DNA of 64,000 nt from a virus, in the IMG/VR virus record IMGVR_UViG_3300045988_117002; one strand, 5' to 3'. The position numbers and the translations under genes were made by a program. Positions 26,885 to 61,203 of the stretch are shown here, piece by piece. Under the pieces are notes generated by a model, which was not told where the DNA came from, did not search any database, and was given only the letters and a program-made list of their open reading frames with translations. Within the stretch, counting starts at the first letter, position 1; every line of letters starts with the position of its first letter.

Positions 26885-26968
26885 ATTCACACCTCCATAA
26901 AATCAGTCATTCATCGTATTATTCTACGTTTATAATTATAAATTTATAATTGCAGGGTGTGAATATGC
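26881..26968. repeat. 13-bp perfect inverted repeat spanning the tnpB stop
   Basis: gcatattcacacc (26881-26893) and ggtgtgaatatgc (26956-26968); one arm lies in the tnpB 3' coding end, the other covers the SD and start of the next ORF. Confidence 0.75.
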
Positions 26969-28099
26969 ACCCACTATCTCATTTGTAGTTACATTTGAGA
27001 ATACTTTTCTCATAATTTGAAATGCACCATTAACATCCGCATTGATATATTCTCCGTTATTACTCTTAAATAATCCACGTTTAATACGTCTTGATTTATT
27101 ATAATTTTCTTTTATTGGTAACTCATTATCAAGAAAACTCGTTCCTGATGTATAGCTTTCTTCTGTCTTAATCAAGTTAATTCCAACGCTTTCACATTTA
27201 TATTCAAGCTTATTGATAAATGTTTCGTATGGAATATACACAAAATTTTGATTAGTAACTTTATTCATTTCAGAATTTTGTTTCCATTTATCGTTCTTTC
27301 CTATAACAATCGTACCAATATCGTATTTTATACAATAATTGACAATATATTTACTTGCACAGTGCATAAGGTATTCCATCTTGAAATATCTTTTATCTGT
27401 TAATTTTTGCATTTGTTTTGTCCAGTTAAGATCGTTTACTGTTTTGGCAATACTTCTTAATCTCGACATTTTCTTATTCCAATATTGATTATAAGATTTT
27501 ATTCCTTTGCCATTTATAACAATAGAAGATTCTCCTATGTTATTTACAATTGTTACAAAGTTATTTAATCCCAAGTCAATTGCAGCAATTCTATTACTGT
27601 TTAATTGGTAAATGTTTCCATCATCCTCATAAACAATTTCAATAATATAACAACCACCTTTAGGAATAATTCTTGTTGATAAATGATGTCCTTTTACATT
27701 TGATTTAATCAAATTGTTATAAGGTTTCATTCTCTTAAAAGCAAAATATAAATATCCATCTTTAATATGTGTTTGCATGTTAGTTAATGTACAAGTAAAT
27801 CTTCCATCTTTCTTCTTATAAGCAGGAATTTTCGGTTTTCCTAAATATTTTTCTGGATGTAATGTATAATCTTTTACAGCTACAAGAAATGATTTCCACG
27901 ATTTACATAATATTTTTGTAACCATTTGAGCAGAATTTGATCCTAACTCTTTAAATGCATCTGTACTTTTCAATTCTTTATTCAAGTCCCCATATTTTTT
28001 AATTTTTTGAGTTTTAAAAAATTCTTGACGGATAGTATAGTTGCAAAGATTATACATATTCTTTGATAAATAACATAACTCATCACATATTTGAAACAT
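26936..28099 (-). CDS. tnpB: TnpB (IS200/IS605 OrfB-type RNA-guided nuclease), zinc-finger-less subtype
   Basis: RuvC motifs AIDLGLNNF (D), TEESYTSGTSF (E), INADVNGAFQIMRK (D); no CxxC pairs between RuvC-II and RuvC-III; the frame stays open upstream to an ATA at 28141 behind a GAGGTG SD. Confidence 0.85.
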   Translation of the reverse strand: MFQICDELCYLSKNMYNLCNYTIRQEFFKTQKIKKYGDLNKELKSTDAFKELGSNSAQMVTKILCKSWKSFLVAVKDYTLHPEKYLGKPKIPAYKKKDGRFTCTLTNMQTHIKDGYLYFAFKRMKPYNNLIKSNVKGHHLSTRIIPKGGCYIIEIVYEDDGNIYQLNSNRIAAIDLGLNNFVTIVNNIGESSIVINGKGIKSYNQYWNKKMSRLRSIAKTVNDLNWTKQMQKLTDKRYFKMEYLMHCASKYIVNYCIKYDIGTIVIGKNDKWKQNSEMNKVTNQNFVYIPYETFINKLEYKCESVGINLIKTEESYTSGTSFLDNELPIKENYNKSRRIKRGLFKSNNGEYINADVNGAFQIMRKVFSNVTTNEIVGAYSHPAIINL

Positions 28100-51808: not shown

Positions 51809-52025
51809 ATGTTACTGCCTATAAATTTGTTGATACCCAACGTTTTGCACTTGTAAGTGATTTACAATTCTTTAAAACTGTATCATTTGCAACTACGTCA
51901 TAAGTGTTATTATATGTAAGTTCAATCCATACATATTGACCATTGCGTTGGTGTGCCGTTCTCTGTATCACATTCATGAATAATATGCCATTCTTTCATT
52001 GTAAAACCTCCTTAAAACATGGATT

Positions 52026-52229
52026 TCATTTTGTGTAATACTTTAAAACGTTGATGGTATCTTCAAGGTCGCACATCTTACAACCTTTAACATTTTCAAT
52101 CTGCTCTTGAATATCAACAGGAAAAGCAAGGCTCTCAAACGTTTCTTTGCATTCCTGGAATATCTGATTTTGAATTGTTTCGGGCAACTCACATACATAG
52201 GTATGAGCTGTTATCTTTGTTTTTGTCAT
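52026..52229 (-). CDS. hypothetical protein (first gene of the leftward block)
   Basis: AGGAGG SD. Confidence 0.5.
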   Translation of the reverse strand: MTKTKITAHTYVCELPETIQNQIFQECKETFESLAFPVDIQEQIENVKGCKMCDLEDTINVLKYYTK

Positions 52230-53086
52230 TGTTATACCTCCTGTTATATATTGTTTATTCTCTTTTTGTTCTCATTTTTGCAAGCCATTATAATTCAACA
52301 TTAGAAATTATTTATACTTGACTACTACTCACCGCCACGGGTCTTACGCTTTTGCCCGTCTTTCAAATAACTTTGCTTGTTGATAATGCCTTGCAACCTA
52401 AGTAAAACAAAAAAGTAAATGCTTTATGATATAGAATCAACCACATTTACAAGAATTAACTATTTCGGCAGTCATCCGCTTTTAACGATTGTATGTTATC
52501 GGAAAGTTTTATGTATCATTGATAGATGTTACCTTTCAAACTATTTCAGTCTAAACAAAATCTTAGGTCTTTGTTTTGCATCTTTCCCCGTTTTTTGATC
52601 AGATACGGACAACTGAACTTTTTGTTATTGTTACCCTGTTCACATGGGCTTTTGGTTAGACTTTTTATTTACTTGCTATCTTGTCAGTATCGCAACCCTT
52701 GCAAGAAACTTTATAGCAGTTTATACTTTGTTGCTCTGTATTTTACAAGACTTCTCTTGTCTGGATTTAGTTTATGTATTACCAGAATCAAAAATCTGTT
52801 TTTTTTTTGAAAAGAAATAGATAAAACTTTTTGTTGCAATTGCTTTTTAAGATTTTAAAAATCTTTTGAGATATCCGATTAAAGCTAACCAGATGTCGTT
52901 AGACTTGAGGTATCTACTTTTTCAAACTCGACGCGCCCTCACGGGATACTACACGGCTCATAGCTATTAACTAGAGATCTCACGAATTATTTCGCTTTAC
53001 CTCACAAGCGGTAACGACTCCGCTTGTCACAATATGAAGTTTTATGTATCAACTTGTTTCCCTCTGTTGATGGTATTACTATAACA

Positions 53087-53174
53087 TAGGGTACCCTATT
53101 AGTCAATAGGTTACCCTATGATTTTTTATGTTTGTGAATTGTGTATAATTTACATATTTGTATAGGGTACCCTA
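53087..53174. promoter_or_regulatory. three palindromic operators TAGGGTACCCTA
   Basis: Perfect 12-bp palindromes at 53087-53098 and 53163-53174 and the variant TAGGTTACCCTA at 53107-53118, interleaved with TATAAT boxes (53144-53149, 53179-53184). Confidence 0.7.
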
Positions 53175-53207
53175 TTAGTATAATATATACAAATGACCAT
53201 AGAAAAG

Positions 53208-53236
53208 TTGACAAGATAAAGCTATAATGTTAATAT
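53208..53236 (+). promoter_or_regulatory. sigma-A promoter of the rightward RHH operon
   Basis: TTGACA (53208-53213), 17 nt, TAATAT (53231-53236). Confidence 0.6.
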
Positions 53237-53308
53237 GTAATACTACTCTTACACCAAAAATGAAAAGAGAATTATTACATATAATAAATAAAGGAAGGTG
53301 TAAGAATT

Positions 53309-53497
53309 ATGGCATATAGCCCAAAATCACAAAAAGATTATAATGATAGATGTACAGTTGTAAAACTTAAATATACACCAGAAGAAACGGAAGAATGTGC
53401 AAGAATGAAACGGTATGCAAAAGATAATAACATACCAATGAGCGTATATATCAAGAAGCTAATACAGGATGATCTTGACAGAAAAGGTTATAAATAA
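53309..53497 (+). CDS. ribbon-helix-helix (CopG/Arc-like) regulator
   Basis: RCTVVKLKYTPEETEECARMKRYAKDNNIPMSVYIKKLIQDDL has the strand-helix-helix pattern; AAAGGAAGG SD. Confidence 0.6.
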   Translation: MAYSPKSQKDYNDRCTVVKLKYTPEETEECARMKRYAKDNNIPMSVYIKKLIQDDLDRKGYK

Positions 53498-53501
53498 ATA
53501 T

Positions 53502-53948
53502 ATGATAGACGATAAAATAACAAAAGAGCACATAGAACATTTAAGAGACATAAACTATTATGATGCTTTAAAGTTGTTTGATAATGGAAATATACGTTAT
53601 TTATATGATGATTTATTTATAGAGTATATACGCCACATAATAAAGAAATGCTTGTTTATAACTGATACTGATAACATGACAGATATAATATATAAATGTT
53701 TTGTTGTATCTGGTAACGTGTCAAGATGTCTTAATATGCTTAGATATAATAATATACAGTATAATCAAAAGTTATCAAATGGAAGATATAGAGTTAATAA
53801 GGAAGACGTATATAACGCTTTGAATAATGGTAGATGTGCAGATATTGAAATAGATTTTATAGCACATTTATTATGGTATGGAAGAAACTACAATGAATTA
53901 GATAGTTATATAGATACTATGTTGTCAAAGATAAAACAGTTGTATTAA
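53502..53948 (+). CDS. hypothetical helical protein
   Basis: ATG 53502 follows the RHH stop by 4 nt. Confidence 0.5.
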   Translation: MIDDKITKEHIEHLRDINYYDALKLFDNGNIRYLYDDLFIEYIRHIIKKCLFITDTDNMTDIIYKCFVVSGNVSRCLNMLRYNNIQYNQKLSNGRYRVNKEDVYNALNNGRCADIEIDFIAHLLWYGRNYNELDSYIDTMLSKIKQLY

Positions 53949-53949
53949 C

Positions 53950-56530
53950 CGCATATAATAGGAAGTAACCCTTTATCAATCATTGTGATCTGCATAACCT
54001 GTTATCATGCGTAAAATGTACAGATAGCCTTGTAAGCTTGTATTTTGCGTTTTAAGGGCTTTTATATCGTATATGATAATTATTATAGGCTTATATGCTT
54101 AAAGTCATTTATACGGCGTTTTACAAGGTTGTTTTTAAGATAGGATGTACAAAAAGGTTACATCTGGACTGTTTGAAACGTGCAACATGATGATATTTAT
54201 GTATCATTTTAATACATTGTTGAGCGTATTTTTACGTCAAAATGTGCGCTATTTTATGCAAGAATATTGTGTATTTATACATTGTTTGCGATGTGTTTTT
54301 ATGCAAAAATTTGTATAAGATAGCGTTGTTTTTATGGGTGGAATAGGTAAAATATTGCGGTAAAATTGCGGTAAAGTGTGAGTATTTTATCTGATTTATG
54401 ATGTATTTTTATCTTGTTTAATGTGTGGTTTTATCTGTTTTTATGTGGTGTTTTATGTCCTGTTTTGAGATAATTTTGTTGTGATCTGTTGTTATATTTT
54501 AATCTCTGGACGGTGTTAGAATGCTGTATCTATAATGATTTTAGATGATACAGATTGTATAATGTGGCGTGGTTAGTGTGGTTATATTATGCGTTGTTTG
54601 TGTGGTATTATGTTAGATTATGTGAGTATGTATTGTAGTATATTGTATAGTATATCAGAGGTATTATAATAGTAATATTATGTGGTATATTGTAGATGTA
54701 TAGTTGGATATAGATAGATGTATATTGTGAGTTATATGTGATGTATAATGTATATTATGATGTATATTATTGTATGTTTATGGTGTGAATTAAGCGTGAG
54801 TATTTGATGTGATAGTATGTTATGTTAATATGATTTTGTAGTGAGTTTGGGATGTAATCTTGTCTGCTGTTGTGCGTCCAGATTGTTTTATTTCGTCCAG
54901 ATTTGTGTTATGTAAGTGTGTTACAATTTTTGTGTTACATTTGTGTATTATAGTGTAGTGGTGTGCCATCCCATTTTTACCGCTGTTTTTGATGATAAAG
55001 TGGAGTGTATTAGTCTTATTTGTTACGTTTTTGTGGTGTAAGTGGTGATATGATTTTGTGTTATTATTTTGTGTTATAATCTTGTAATCGAATTTTTTGT
55101 TGGAAATCCAACATAACGAACAGAATTGACCAATAGTCATTTATTTACGTTTTTTCGCTCATTTTCTCTTGTTTTCTCTTATTTTCTCACTTTTCCTTTT
55201 TTCGAGTATACTATAATAATATTTATAATTGTATATACAATTAAAATCTCCCGTCCGTGATCTGCGTCCAGAATACCCAATAAAATTTTAGTTTTATCAT
55301 ACTAACTTTTATATCCTGTACCACCCCCATGTTTTTGACCGGAGTAAAAATGTCAAATAATAACAAAACTTGACTTTTTACACTTCCTACAAAAGTGCAA
55401 AAGTTAGTTTTATTCAACAATAGCAAGGCTTTTCGGGAATTGCATATTACACTATTTTAATCCGATTTTATGATCCTGTTTTATAATGTATACCAGTAGG
55501 ACGGGGATAGTTTACATTTGTAATTTTAATATGATATTGTCATATCCACTGATGAGTTCAACTCACACTACTCGTCCAAAAATCAAAACTGGTAATCCAT
55601 CATCCCACACTCGCCTCCAACAGAAAAAATTCTCACCCTCACATCACCTCACAAATTGCACCAAATCTACACACAACTCACCAAAATAATCAAAATGAGT
55701 TCGAGACGGAGTTCGACCGCACCCTTACATGTCAACGCAAAATAAATTTTCTGACAATTCTAAATCACCAATTTTCACCCAAAATTACCTATCCCAAATC
55801 ACAATATCCCTTGCAAAATCTAACAATTTACGAAGTCCTCTCGAAGCGATACCATCACATAATAAATTTAATCTGCGCACAATTCCAAATAATTTACTCC
55901 ATCTTCATCCTGCAATATCCCAAATTCCCTTGCCACATCTACCTAAAACGCAGCAATCACTTCTTATTATAAGCACACATCACTCTCCCATCTCAATCAA
56001 AATTATCACCCAAAACACTCCCCTCGAAGTCCCAAATCTCAGCTTACCAGAAAATACCCATCTAAATTGTGTTAAACTTTCGCACAATTCTAATCACTAA
56101 AATTTACTTAAAAAATATATCATAAAAACTTGAAGTGCCAAATTGACACCTCAAGATACAATCATCAAAAACTCTAAAATCAATTTTATTCTCACTATTC
56201 TAATGTACAACTTAAAGCAGACATCACAACTACCCTCACCTGAGCAACTTAGCATCTGCATATTACAATTTTCAAATTAAATCTACATCATATTATCTGC
56301 AATAAATATCTCAAACAGAGAATCTTATATACAAAGATATATAGGGGGTACTTTTACATCTACAAAAAATCACTACTCTCATATCCCACCTAACCTCAAA
56401 TTTTCACCAGCAAAAATAAATCCTATTTATTTCAAATAGAGAATCTACAACCAGTAACATGCAAACTAAATATTTCAATACGCAAAGAGAGAAATAATAA
56501 TTATCAAAAATCATTAAAATAAAAAGGAGA
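53950..56530. other. 2.6-kb gene desert: C-free arm, palindromic core, G-poor arm
   Basis: 2 C in 54601-54840; mostly 1-3 G per 60 nt in 55490-56500; dispersed degenerate repeats; the track ORFs here lack SD sites and are low-complexity. Confidence 0.7.
55227..55242. repeat. perfect 16-bp palindrome AATTGTATATACAATT at the composition switch
   Basis: Read directly; flanked by three 10-bp-phased TTTTCTC repeats (55162-55188) and a CGTCCAGA motif (55265-55272). Confidence 0.85.
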
Positions 56531-56538
56531 TTACACAA

Positions 56539-57162
56539 ATGAATAATAAAATTAACAGTAATGAATATTTGACTAAATATTTTAATGGCACAAGATTATA
56601 TCCTATCAATCTTATTAATTATTTTAAACATTATTACAATTATGATTTTTGCTACCAACATAATGATAATAATTTTGATGGATCTTTAGATATTATTTTG
56701 GATTATCAAGATGCATATAGATTAATTACTTCAAATATATTTCAACCACTTACAATATACAAATGGAATTTTTCATCGGCAACATTAAACAAAATCAAAT
56801 CCATAACAAACAAATATCTTGCCGATAAGAGAATATACATACCAAAAATAACACCAAAATCATACTACTATCTCTCAAGGGGATATGGTAAATCAATCAG
56901 AGAATTGCGTTATTTCATAAAACTAATATCAGATTCAGAAAAGAGTCAATTTTCATATAATCCATATTCATCAGAATATACAGTGCAAAATTATAAATCT
57001 GATATGGAGAATTTATATAAGAAGATAATATCTGAAAAGATACTTAACTCATATGAAACACAAAATAACTCTACAAAACAGAAAAGTAATAACAAAGAAG
57101 AAATGAGCTGCTTAAAAATTATTGCCGATAAAAACAATATAAATAAGAAATTTCACAAATAA
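56539..57162 (+). CDS. hypothetical protein
   Basis: AAAGGAGA SD; first gene after the desert. Confidence 0.6.
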   Translation: MNNKINSNEYLTKYFNGTRLYPINLINYFKHYYNYDFCYQHNDNNFDGSLDIILDYQDAYRLITSNIFQPLTIYKWNFSSATLNKIKSITNKYLADKRIYIPKITPKSYYYLSRGYGKSIRELRYFIKLISDSEKSQFSYNPYSSEYTVQNYKSDMENLYKKIISEKILNSYETQNNSTKQKSNNKEEMSCLKIIADKNNINKKFHK

Positions 57163-57177
57163 AGGAGATCAACCATT

Positions 57178-57720
57178 ATGAGAAAATCAAAAGACGACAA
57201 AAATAACACAACTACTACTATCACACCATTGACATCTAATGAGACACCAATTGAGATTGCATTACAGATTGACAAAGATGGAATGACAACGGCAAGTAAA
57301 CTATATGCTTTCTTAGAATTATTACCATCAAATTTTGCTAGATGGTGTAAGAAAAATATCGTAAATAATAAATTTGCAACTGAAAATGAAGATTATTTCC
57401 CGTTCATCATGCAAGAAGAACGAGATAAACCAAAAAATCCAAAACCAAAAACAGACTATAAACTTACATCTGAATTTGCAAAGAAACTTTCAATGACAGG
57501 TAACACTGAAAAACATGAGAAAGCAAGAAATTATTTTATTGCTTGTGAGCAAGGATTAAAAATCGCTACCGCTAAATTACAGGCAAGAAATGATGATATT
57601 CAAGCTTTAGCACAGAGTGTAAATAATCTTGTACAAAAGATTGATAATAAATTTGATTCATTAGAAGCTAGAATATCTACATTAGAAAACACTACCCCAA
57701 AATCATTACCAAAGAAATAA
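57178..57720 (+). CDS. phage antirepressor (AntA-like N-terminus plus ANT/KilAC-like domain)
   Basis: MTTASKLYAFLELLPSNFARWCKKNI...ENEDYFPF and DYKLTSEFAKKLSMTGNTEKHEKARNYFIACEQ. Confidence 0.6.
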   Translation: MRKSKDDKNNTTTTITPLTSNETPIEIALQIDKDGMTTASKLYAFLELLPSNFARWCKKNIVNNKFATENEDYFPFIMQEERDKPKNPKPKTDYKLTSEFAKKLSMTGNTEKHEKARNYFIACEQGLKIATAKLQARNDDIQALAQSVNNLVQKIDNKFDSLEARISTLENTTPKSLPKK

Positions 57721-57744
57721 CGGTTCACATACTGGCAATCCAAG

Positions 57745-58038
57745 ATGTTTCCTAAATATCAAGCATTAGCAGAATATTTTGAAATCCAACTGAAAGATCT
57801 CTATAAGAATCTATATAGAGAATTTCAGAATATGTATCCTGATATTGAGCTAAACCAGATTGTAGATGATTATTGCTACGAGAATAAATTAGAAACTTGT
57901 TACACCTTAGACGCAATAGAACACGATAAAACTGTAAGAGTATTATTTGAGCAGTTAGTAGATACTCTTTTGGAGAAATATGATTTAGTACTTCATAAAG
58001 AGAAACTTATAGTATCAACAATTTTTGACACAAAATAA
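57745..58038 (+). CDS. hypothetical protein
   Basis: Co-directional + strand ORF. Confidence 0.5.
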   Translation: MFPKYQALAEYFEIQLKDLYKNLYREFQNMYPDIELNQIVDDYCYENKLETCYTLDAIEHDKTVRVLFEQLVDTLLEKYDLVLHKEKLIVSTIFDTK

Positions 58039-60759: not shown

Positions 60760-61203
60760 ATGATGAGAAAAATGGATTACAAATATTTCTCAAAAGCCAA
60801 GCAGATTGCACAGGTGTCTGATTTCCCAAAGGTACATATTGGATGTATCGCTGTTTATCAGAATCGCATTATCGGAATTGGTTGTAATACAAATAAAACT
60901 CACCCTACCCAGAAGTATTATAACCGATACAGAATAGATGACAACGATTTTGATAATTCTGAATCACTTCTACCAAAACTCCACGCAGAAATAAATTGTA
61001 TAAATCAACTGAAACATTTGAATATTAATTTTTCAAAAGTCAAGTTGTACATATATCGCACTAGAAAAGATATTGTGTGTGGAATGGCTAGACCTTGTGC
61101 AAGCTGTATGCAAGCGATAAAGGATCTTGGAATTAGAGAAATATATTATACAACAAATGATGGTTATTCATATGAAAAGTTAGAGAAAGGATGTGTTGCT
61201 TAA
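60760..61203 (+). CDS. CMP/dCMP-deaminase-fold zinc enzyme (dCMP deaminase-like)
   Basis: LHAEINCI (HAE) and PCASCMQAI (PCxxC) zinc-binding motifs, 147 aa. Confidence 0.8.
   Translation: MMRKMDYKYFSKAKQIAQVSDFPKVHIGCIAVYQNRIIGIGCNTNKTHPTQKYYNRYRIDDNDFDNSESLLPKLHAEINCINQLKHLNINFSKVKLYIYRTRKDIVCGMARPCASCMQAIKDLGIREIYYTTNDGYSYEKLEKGCVA

Follow-up and report, generated by a model that had tools for sequence, protein, structure and literature searches.

Rho-dependent polarity sites of the rut type, exemplified by nutR-tR1 downstream of cro in phage lambda, are untranslated, C-rich, G-poor and unstructured segments with a C>G-skewed strand, and in lambda the site comes after an early promoter and small regulator genes and before the delayed genes. 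A rut site spans ~80 nt, and the "bubbles" that have been tested reach up to a few hundred nucleotides. Iteron origins, such as lambda ori, P1 oriR and the origins of lactococcal phages, are also non-coding; they combine clustered repeats of 17-22 bp with hairpins and bent DNA, differ in specificity among relatives and can be located at the junction of divergent gene arms. Strand asymmetry is known from vertebrate mitochondrial DNA and from break-associated deamination clusters, in which G+T-rich strands face A+C-rich strands, G falls to a few percent and the strand switches at the break. The omega leader of tobacco mosaic virus (TMV) and the A/C-rich arrays found by the terminal repeat of phage T7 are G-poor, untranslated, built of degenerate short repeats and placed before the genes that are expressed first. 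The locus described here shares traits with all of these systems. It is a gene-free block at positions 53,950 to 56,530 of a 64,000-nt stretch (one strand; hereafter the window) of the virus record IMGVR_UViG_3300045988_117002, in which two arms of opposite base skew form a mirror-image pair around a variable centre and a conserved unskewed core. We know of no described phage element with such an architecture, and no description of such a paired element was found in full-text searches of the literature. As judged from its relatives, the block is a conserved non-coding module, possibly one with a control function, of a lineage of large human-gut phages.

The composition pattern is real and is stable across relatives. 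The initial annotation had described a gene desert in which a nearly C-free left arm and a G-poor right arm mirror each other, with the switch in a core of ~350 bp, and both the exact recount and the sliding skew values bore this description out. On the + strand the left arm (54300-55140) is composed of A.25, C.06, G.23 and T.46, and the right arm (55490-56500) of A.39, C.26, G.08 and T.27. The two C that had been counted in the 240 nt of 54601-54840 were exact, and this is the minimum of the 64-kb window (mean 44, standard deviation 9.6). When GC skew was calculated over 500 nt, positive values of a magnitude >0.55 were confined to the block (+0.62 to +0.68, 54251-55000), and the most negative values of the window were also found there (-0.55 to -0.64, 55501-56250). 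Over 200 nt, the skew peaks at +0.92 (54600-54799), crosses zero within 55000-55500 and then stays at -0.5 to -0.69 across 55500-56300; toward the outer end of each arm it fades gradually. The skew thus survived the recount, and all the motifs that had been listed were present at the positions given. No credible open reading frame (ORF) was found in 53946-56545, i.e., between the ORFs that end at 53948 and start at 56539, and no 3-nt periodicity was detected in any frame of the block. The only frames >100 codons (54820-55140 on the - strand and 55729-56100 on the + strand) are compositional artefacts, since TAA is the one stop that a G-poor strand can form. No tRNA genes were found inside the block, and no Rfam RNA family matched 52000-58000 at an E of 1 or below.

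The module and its skew flip are present in >45 related contigs, which represent human-gut phages of ~150-190 kb. Exact-word scans with a conserved 20-22-mer recovered 19 viral and 18 gut-metagenome loci (one further hit was due to chance), and look-ups via the DUF4121 protein, which is encoded 3 kb to the left of the block, gave many more contigs (58-193 kb); index blocks of public assemblies in which this protein is on record number >200. All loci recovered keep the desert and the flip of the skew, with only a weak skew in one distant relative (L044), and the alignment of the relatives showed that several of the repeats are conserved as well. Irrespective of the flanking genes, similarity to the window extends from 53945-53952 to 56404 or 56545, and such fixed boundaries with varying neighbours indicate that the block is a discrete module. 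The sole similar record in the phage collection was MT835469.1 (176 kb, unannotated, from human faeces); no close cultured relatives were found, and the block had no match in the scans of bacterial genomes. Strong Shine-Dalgarno sites (AAAGGAG) suggest a host of the Firmicutes type. In L044, whose DUF4121 protein is 71% identical, the desert lies at the same place and its landmarks include a boundary motif TATAATAxGAAGxAAC..TGTGATCT, its own GTTACAATATT repeats, a hairpin with CGAAC, and GGGGATA...ATGAGTTC.ACT; the weak skew of this relative suggests that the extreme composition is an intensification within one sub-lineage. Genomes that differ by 0-5% at the four-fold degenerate sites of genes 2-5 kb to the right diverge by 7-28% in the block. 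This high divergence includes the unskewed parts, and identity changes abruptly inside the block, which indicates that the block is a mosaic of old alleles, like much of the early region.

A DUF4121 homologue (63% identical) was also found in a bacterial-looking context (ENA contig k141_688039), where its neighbours are a penicillin-binding protein, SecA, SSB and the nucleoid protein NA37, so that the family is not confined to these phages.

The neutral baseline of this genome changes the way in which the composition of the arms has to be described. In 15 genes whose four-fold degenerate sites were counted, the coding strand has ~50% A, 33% T, 3-15% G and 0-13% C at these sites, and over all window genes these sites are ~85-90% A+T; neutral composition is therefore far AT-richer than the overall 30% GC, and the unconstrained DNA of this phage is almost two-letter (A/T). 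Since G and C are both rare at these sites, the three-letter description of the arms needs to be reframed as the enrichment of one letter. The depleted letter (C 6% in the left arm, G 8% in the right arm) is close to the neutral level, whereas the enriched letter on the + strand amounts to G 23-26% in the left arm and C 26-31% in the right arm, and the GC content of the arms (29-39%) is well above the neutral ~14%. The true anomaly is an enrichment of C (23-31%) on one strand, the one that reads outward from the centre, and not a loss of G: the outward strands of both arms have the background of a sense strand, with A>T and little G, to which C is added in three- to four-fold excess. The initial annotation was thus right in that these strands are low in G, but not in taking the depletion for the anomaly.

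Allele comparisons bear on what maintains this composition. In 22 distinct alleles, C accounts for 1-4% of the left core and G for 5.8-7.2% of the right arm. The mean divergence between alleles is 21% in the left arm, 9-13% in the right arm and 13% in the unskewed core, the right arm being as conserved as the core. The left arm of one relative (L062) is not alignable, yet its C content is 1-6%, and substitutions stay within the alphabet of each arm, A/G differences dominating in the left arm and C/T differences in the right arm. By these comparisons, composition and not sequence is what is kept in the arms. The rare and the common allele were then counted per site, in the direction common-to-rare, a test that ignores the relatedness and mosaicism of the sequences, so that its p values overstate independence: in the right arm C-to-T changes outnumbered T-to-C changes (98 vs 40, p = 9e-7) and A-to-G outnumbered G-to-A (34 vs 16, p = 0.015), in the left arm T-to-C outnumbered C-to-T (41 vs 4, p = 9e-9), and the unskewed segments 53990-54340 (T-to-C 17 vs C-to-T 18, p = 1) and 55250-55560 (13 vs 11, p = 0.84) were balanced. 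The C-richness of the right arm is hence being eroded by mutation while its C content stays constant, which points to maintenance by selection. The spectrum of the left arm fits selection against C and very fast C-to-T reversion alike. The arms are not decayed DNA, and the element is probably under selection.

The centre of the block is rich in repeats (Table 1). Half of the ten copies of GTCCAGA in the window fall in the block, and 2.5 copies would be expected in all 64 kb; this is the clustering that the initial annotation had noticed for an 8-mer, to which a further inverted copy at 54163 can be added. The boxes bracket the centre, two inverted ones on the left and three direct ones, and the closely spaced direct pair, which is kept in most relatives, marks its left edge. 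The centre itself is not alignable between types, of which there are at least four (the window type, the L001 type with TTATGAA repeats, L006, and L019/L062). The repeats of 7-8 nt differ from type to type, and so does the inverted repeat, which always occupies one and the same place and is always followed by CGAAC. The array of 10-bp-phased TTTTCTC repeats was confirmed, and the phased T-tracts are a feature of the centre type of the window. The GC content of the centre (28-30%) is not below the genome average, and no covariation of centre type with the flanking genes was seen within the DNA available. The 16-bp palindrome to the right of the centre exists in the window as proposed, but its perfect form is peculiar to this genome: most relatives carry the imperfect form AATTGTCTATACAATT, with conserved arms and CTAT as the central 4 bp, and perfect palindromes of 16 bp are found three times in the window (shuffle mean 2.7) and in 11% of block shuffles.

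The outward strands of both arms have unusual properties as potential transcripts. According to PMC6144790, Rho-dependent signals are marked by a C>G skew without interruption, by little structure, by spaced YC dimers and by particular trinucleotides, CAC among them. On the + strand the strongest such run of C>G is 55500-56528 (mean C-G 19%, maximum 38%), and on the - strand it is 53972-55147; under the stringent threshold no other run on either strand of the 64 kb is as long, and both exceed the ~78 nt that such signals call for. The folding energy per 150 nt of outward strand is 0 to -0.7 kcal in the left core and -1.5 to -2.7 kcal in the right arm, compared with -15 to -25 kcal in the controls. 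The start triplets ATG, GTG and TTG are absent from 561 nt of the left arm and occur 12 times in 941 nt of the right arm (control 36), and there are almost no Shine-Dalgarno-like words. CAC is found at 36-43 per kb on both outward strands (5-10 elsewhere), and chains of the type (YC N9-13)x6 reach 14 per kb in the right arm, compared with 0 on sense and 3-5 on antisense strands. The inward strands, in turn, are G/U-rich, more structured than the controls and full of start and stop codons. Of the three roles that the initial annotation had considered, divergent G-poor outward transcripts are therefore the best fit as far as sequence properties go. Conservation, anatomy, the rule of composition with its stability among alleles, and the lack of coding and folding potential are observed, whereas outward transcription, a part played by Rho and origin function are inferred. 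The nearest counterpart in function would be a polarity region of the rut type behind an early promoter, which the arms exceed tenfold in length. Unlike a rut site, the block has arms of 0.6-1 kb that form a mirror-image pair around a variable centre.

We tentatively propose, as a possibility that stays well short of a probability, that the centre of the block serves proteins as a binding hub, which may be an origin, and that the spacers on both sides of it are transcribed outward, cannot be translated and are of a Rho-loading type. The GTCCAGA boxes, the type-specific repeats, the hairpin with CGAAC, the phased T-tracts and the near-palindrome would make up the hub, which would most likely be a replication origin or a similar specificity-determining site, and the arms would act as RNA read outward from it, untranslatable, free of structure and C>G-skewed, as rut sites are. 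Transcription from either flank would enter the hub on a C-poor, Rho-resistant transcript, and transcription leaving the hub would cross a Rho-loading tract of ~1 kb, where it would be halted unless anti-terminated, so that the hub would be insulated. The stop would also affect transcripts that start at the early promoter and run on toward the anti-repressor genes and the 207-aa ORF, all of which would then depend for their expression on anti-termination or on a promoter of their own. If this is true, the module would offer a testable model of how a large phage of a Firmicutes-type host insulates its origin or control hub from the flanking early operons, and a test of whether phages other than the lambdoid ones use Rho-type polarity as a timing device; within the lineage, groups that differ in replication or immunity specificity could be told apart by the type of their centre.

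Several results weigh against the proposal of a hub with Rho-loading flanks. The left arm has only 2 YC chains per kb and 8.7 YC per 100 nt, which is below ordinary antisense strands, and the length of the arms far exceeds any described rut site. With 26 promoter-like sites found and 32 expected from shuffles, such sites are not enriched, and a search of the left edge of the centre gave no convincing promoter that points leftward. The G.U-type variation of the hairpins favours inward transcription, i.e., rightward in the left segment and leftward in the right arm. On the + strand, the left arm carries a one-orientation array of TGTGGT/TTTATGTGG and GTGAGTAT motifs; TGTGGT occurs 6 times on this inward strand (2 expected) and 11 times in the arm of L062 that cannot be aligned (3 expected), so that the array looks like a DNA-level binding motif. 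The allele test, with its overstated independence, cannot separate selection from hypermutation in the left arm. An active host Rho is an assumption, the host-directed scans of bacterial genomes having been empty. As to an origin function, the block has no DnaA boxes at <=1 mismatch, and no initiator, helicase loader or primase was identified within ~8 kb, the neighbours having no replication-family hits.

The same observations can be read in other ways. The arms might be a composition-coded bipartite element, i.e., a stealth pair of long non-coding RNAs, Rho-gated insulators, or structure-free single-strand loading tracks for a helicase or recombinase, an idea that we regard as rather unlikely. 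Selection would then hold both flanks of the hub in an effectively three-letter alphabet, with outward strands that are C-rich and G-free and can neither fold nor start translation; the RNAs or insulators would admit transcription to the hub but would not let it leave. If the arms are selected for composition and not for sequence, they would provide a natural case of kilobase-scale function in strand-specific base composition in a phage, in a module that belongs to a prevalent group of human-gut phages.

In a second reading, which we consider rather unlikely, the block is an iteron-type origin and the arms are structure-free tracks for 5'-to-3' helicases that move outward on the G-free strands; the enrichment of C or G on one strand would keep the duplex of the arms stable (GC 29-39%) and confine melting to the centre. 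The initial annotation had proposed a replication, packaging or partition centre with iterons, and it is the centre only that is compatible with this, through its type-specific short repeats, hairpins and phased T-tracts. The position also fits, since the block lies 1-8 kb from the cumulative GC-skew minimum and the strand switch, between two divergent gene arms (in MT835469.1 it is within a few kb of the minimum, where the arms diverge), and it is downstream of an early promoter, as is lambda ori, a transcription-activated origin. The GC of the arms well above neutral, and the inability of either arm strand to form G-C hairpins (folding was computed for the outward strands), would be in line with such tracks. 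Unlike iteron origins, the block lacks DnaA boxes and an adjacent or overlapping initiator gene, and its candidate initiator repeats (TGTGTTA, five to six copies, and the equivalents TTATGAA and GTTACAATATT) are only 7-8 nt long and irregularly spaced. The asymmetric 1-kb arms have no counterpart in such origins, and to our knowledge there is no precedent for helicase "runways" at their flanks. Furthermore, the usual leading-strand bias is an excess of G+T, and the sign of the skew is opposite to the imprint expected from replication out of the centre.

A programmed nick or break in the centre, made by a terminase, endonuclease or recombinase, is a third reading that seems improbable to us. 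After 5'-to-3' resection, the 3' tails would be the G/T-rich, C-free strands, unfoldable and preferred as substrates of RecA-type proteins, and the arms would aid strand invasion as a recombination hotspot and promote recombination-dependent replication or repair. Resection tracts are ~1 kb long, which matches the arms, and the strand with its 3' end toward the centre is G+T-rich in both of them (69% and 65%), so that both the sign and the mirror symmetry fit. The TGTGGT arrays lie on that strand of the left arm, and RecA is described as binding TGG-repeat, Chi-like sequences preferentially (PMC3763553). The mosaic of old alleles in the block would also be expected at a hotspot, but the whole early region is mosaic, so that mosaicism is not specific to the block. 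The corresponding strand of the right arm has no copy of TGTGGT, and no motif common to both arms beyond composition was found. Neither a break site nor a nuclease was identified, and 10 of 10 large contigs (58-193 kb) traverse the block at arbitrary positions. As for physical genome ends, such as a terminal repeat or concatemer junction of the T7 type, no common contig end was seen and the short contigs end at different bases, in assemblies that may miss a short terminal repeat. If the arms were runways for recombination or replication, they would constitute a cis-acting DNA element of a new kind.

The arms could, in the last place, be without a function of their own and record the mutational footprint of single-strandedness, caused by heavy convergent transcription, R-loops or resection; this we hold to be very unlikely. 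The inward 5'-to-3' strands would have been single-stranded, and C-to-T together with A-to-G deamination would have made them G+T-rich. An excess of G+T on one strand is the classical signature of single-strand deamination, and the H strand of vertebrate mitochondrial DNA is alike. The early promoter reads into the left arm with no predicted terminator, the skew decays gradually toward the outer ends of the arms, and the left-arm spectrum, with C rare, fits fast C-to-T reversion as well as selection. However, pure cytosine deamination is rejected, because from a neutral 3-15% it could not have produced the G (23-26%) and the C (26-31%) of the arms; the enriched letter lies far above neutral, in contrast to the mitochondrial and break-cluster cases. 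Current substitutions cannot drive the skew of the right arm either, in that their C-to-T excess erodes its C-richness, which must be restored by selection, and this arm is as conserved as the unskewed core. The strand-specific C-to-T footprint suggested in the initial annotation was thus not upheld. In addition, ORF 53469-53948, which is on the same early transcription unit, has no G enrichment at its four-fold sites (G.03), and RNA:DNA hybrids of the inward transcripts have no energy advantage.

Other candidates were rejected as well. An R-loop-primed origin of the ColE1, T4 oriF/oriG or herpesvirus oriLyt type is disfavoured by a hybrid-minus-duplex energy of +0.03 to +0.08 kcal per step, inward transcripts with G>C being no better than the controls (here and for the hybrids above, nearest-neighbour values were used). 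A long inverted repeat or hairpin-telomere resolution site does not agree with an arm complementarity equal to that of shuffles and a palindrome at chance level. A search for a hypermutated copy of another part of the genome, by C-to-T/G-to-A converted alignment, gave low-complexity matches only, and MazF-type UACAU or other k-mers as sponge sites showed weak enrichments only (z of 5 or below). Unlike the TMV omega leader and the T7 arrays, which are single elements of 70-200 nt, the block is paired and has no evidence of genome ends, nor of a translation-enhancer role such as that of omega.

Table 1. Features of the block and of the upstream switch (positions in the window; a dot in the strand column means no strand)
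Feature	Position	Strand	Remark
Divergent promoter/operator switch	53078-53240		Three copies of the palindromic box TAGGGTACCCTA
TAGGGTACCCTA copies	53089, 53108 (variant), 53163		Between two divergent promoter-like sites
Leftward promoter-like site TTGACT-17-TATAGT			Switch
Rightward promoter-like site TTGACA-17-TAATAT	53208-53236		Switch; with TG
Left boundary motif TATAATAGGAAGTAAC ... TGTGATCTGC			Directly after the stop codon of any upstream gene
Left conserved segment, weakly skewed	53946..54340	.	80-95% identity between window and relatives
Small hairpin GATGTA/TACATC	54145..54169 (stem 54145-54165)	+	Followed by the inverted GTCCAGA box 54163-54169
Repeat TTTTATGCAARAAT..TTGT.TAT, x2	~54255 and ~54298		In the left segment, with small hairpins
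Left arm	54340..54900	- (outward)	A.46, C.23, T.25, G.06
ATTGCGGTAAA, x2	54346-54375		Left arm
GTCCAGA boxes, inverted	54163-54169 and 54505..54511	-
GTCCAGA boxes, direct	54876, 54895 (54876..54901) and 55266-55272	+	First two 19 bp apart
Variable centre, type A in the window	54902..55225	.	Not alignable between types
TGTGTTA(Y) repeats, x5-6	54904-55085		Centre, window type
TGACCAATAGTCA	within 54902..55225		Centre
Hairpin GTTGGAAATCCAAC	55099-55112		Then CGAAC, 55117-55121
Pyrimidine tract with 10-bp-phased TTTTCTC repeats	55152-55188		Tandem-repeat call
Near-palindrome AATTGT-ATAT-ACAATT (AATTGTATATACAATT)	55227-55242	.	Candidate dimer-binding or recombinase-type site
Conserved unskewed core	55250..55560	.	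Holds the third direct GTCCAGA box
Promoter-like site TTTACA-18-TATTGT	55511-55540	+	With TG; consensus scan
Right arm	55560..56500	+ (outward)	A.39, C.26-.31, T.27, G.07-.08
GAGTTCGA, x2	55697-55716		Right arm
Candidate leftward small transcript	56114..56314	-	Inside the right arm, ~160 nt, inferred
Promoter-like site TTGAGA-16-TATGAT	56314..56287	-	Then 12-bp hairpin and T-run, 56155..56129
End of the right arm	56539 (ORF)		Shine-Dalgarno sequence of the 207-aa ORF

The small hairpin of the left segment reads GATATAC/GTATATC in some relatives, with both sides changed, and GATGTA/TATATC in others, a G.T intermediate that pairs on the + strand only; this one covarying pair is weak evidence for the hairpin. 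Within the unskewed core, a ~90-nt stretch (55345-55440) is invariant in 17 distinct sequences, and no covariation was detected there because the stretch is too invariant; a sliding alifold scan gave no discriminating signal. The G-poor tract begins right after the promoter-like site at the end of the core and stops at the ribosome-binding site of the next gene. The right arm consists of 3-4 degenerate units of 110-205 nt, in each of which three conserved boxes that contain G recur, CGAAGTCC, TKCGCACAATTCYAAW and ATCMCAAWWTCCCTTGCMAMATCTA. For the putative leftward small transcript, pairing of the terminal hairpin is kept in L001 on the - strand only, via G.U pairs. The degenerate repeats that the initial annotation had listed in both arms are at their positions, and several are conserved in relatives, but most of the two-copy repeats are individually weak.

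The block is not the point at which the gene arms diverge. The genes of 1-52229 are on the - strand and those from 53227 on the + strand, and it is the promoter/operator switch between them, outside the coordinates given in the initial annotation, that is the divergence point. Two small + strand ORFs and a distance of ~0.7 kb separate the block from this switch, on whose downstream side it is part of the rightward early transcription unit, and no intrinsic terminator was predicted on the + strand from the early promoter to 57200. A second ORF-free stretch of ~850 nt (52230-53080), presumed to be the leader of the leftward gene arm, is partly conserved in L044 and L047 and has no strong skew.

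The - strand arm (1-51200) is an accessory and anti-defence island, which encodes N6/N4, C5 and D12 DNA methylases, a MazF/PemK-like toxin, TnpB (26936-28099), a tyrosine recombinase, GmrSD_N and anti-repressors, and at the island position L044, L062 and L063 have homologues of AcrIC5, Lar and ArdA. The flanking ORFs gave nothing significant against solved structures, and the comparison of the 207-aa ORF with T7 Ocr gave a phmmer E of 0.8. This ORF (56539-57162) has a variable N-terminal and a conserved C-terminal part among relatives. A 147-aa ORF (60760-61203) has a cytidine/dCMP deaminase zinc-binding fold (HAE...PCxxC; Pfam E = 5e-14) and a weaker match to a MafB19-like deaminase; it is mentioned because deamination is among the proposed causes of the skew, and it is probably an ordinary enzyme of nucleotide metabolism. 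Past the right end of the window, MT835469.1 and L024 (12200-14500) have a 2.1-kb ORF-poor stretch with tRNA-Ser, tRNA-Arg and tRNA-Met, which is followed by a beta-CASP/RMMBL (RNase J-like) nuclease, ClpP and a Xer-like recombinase.

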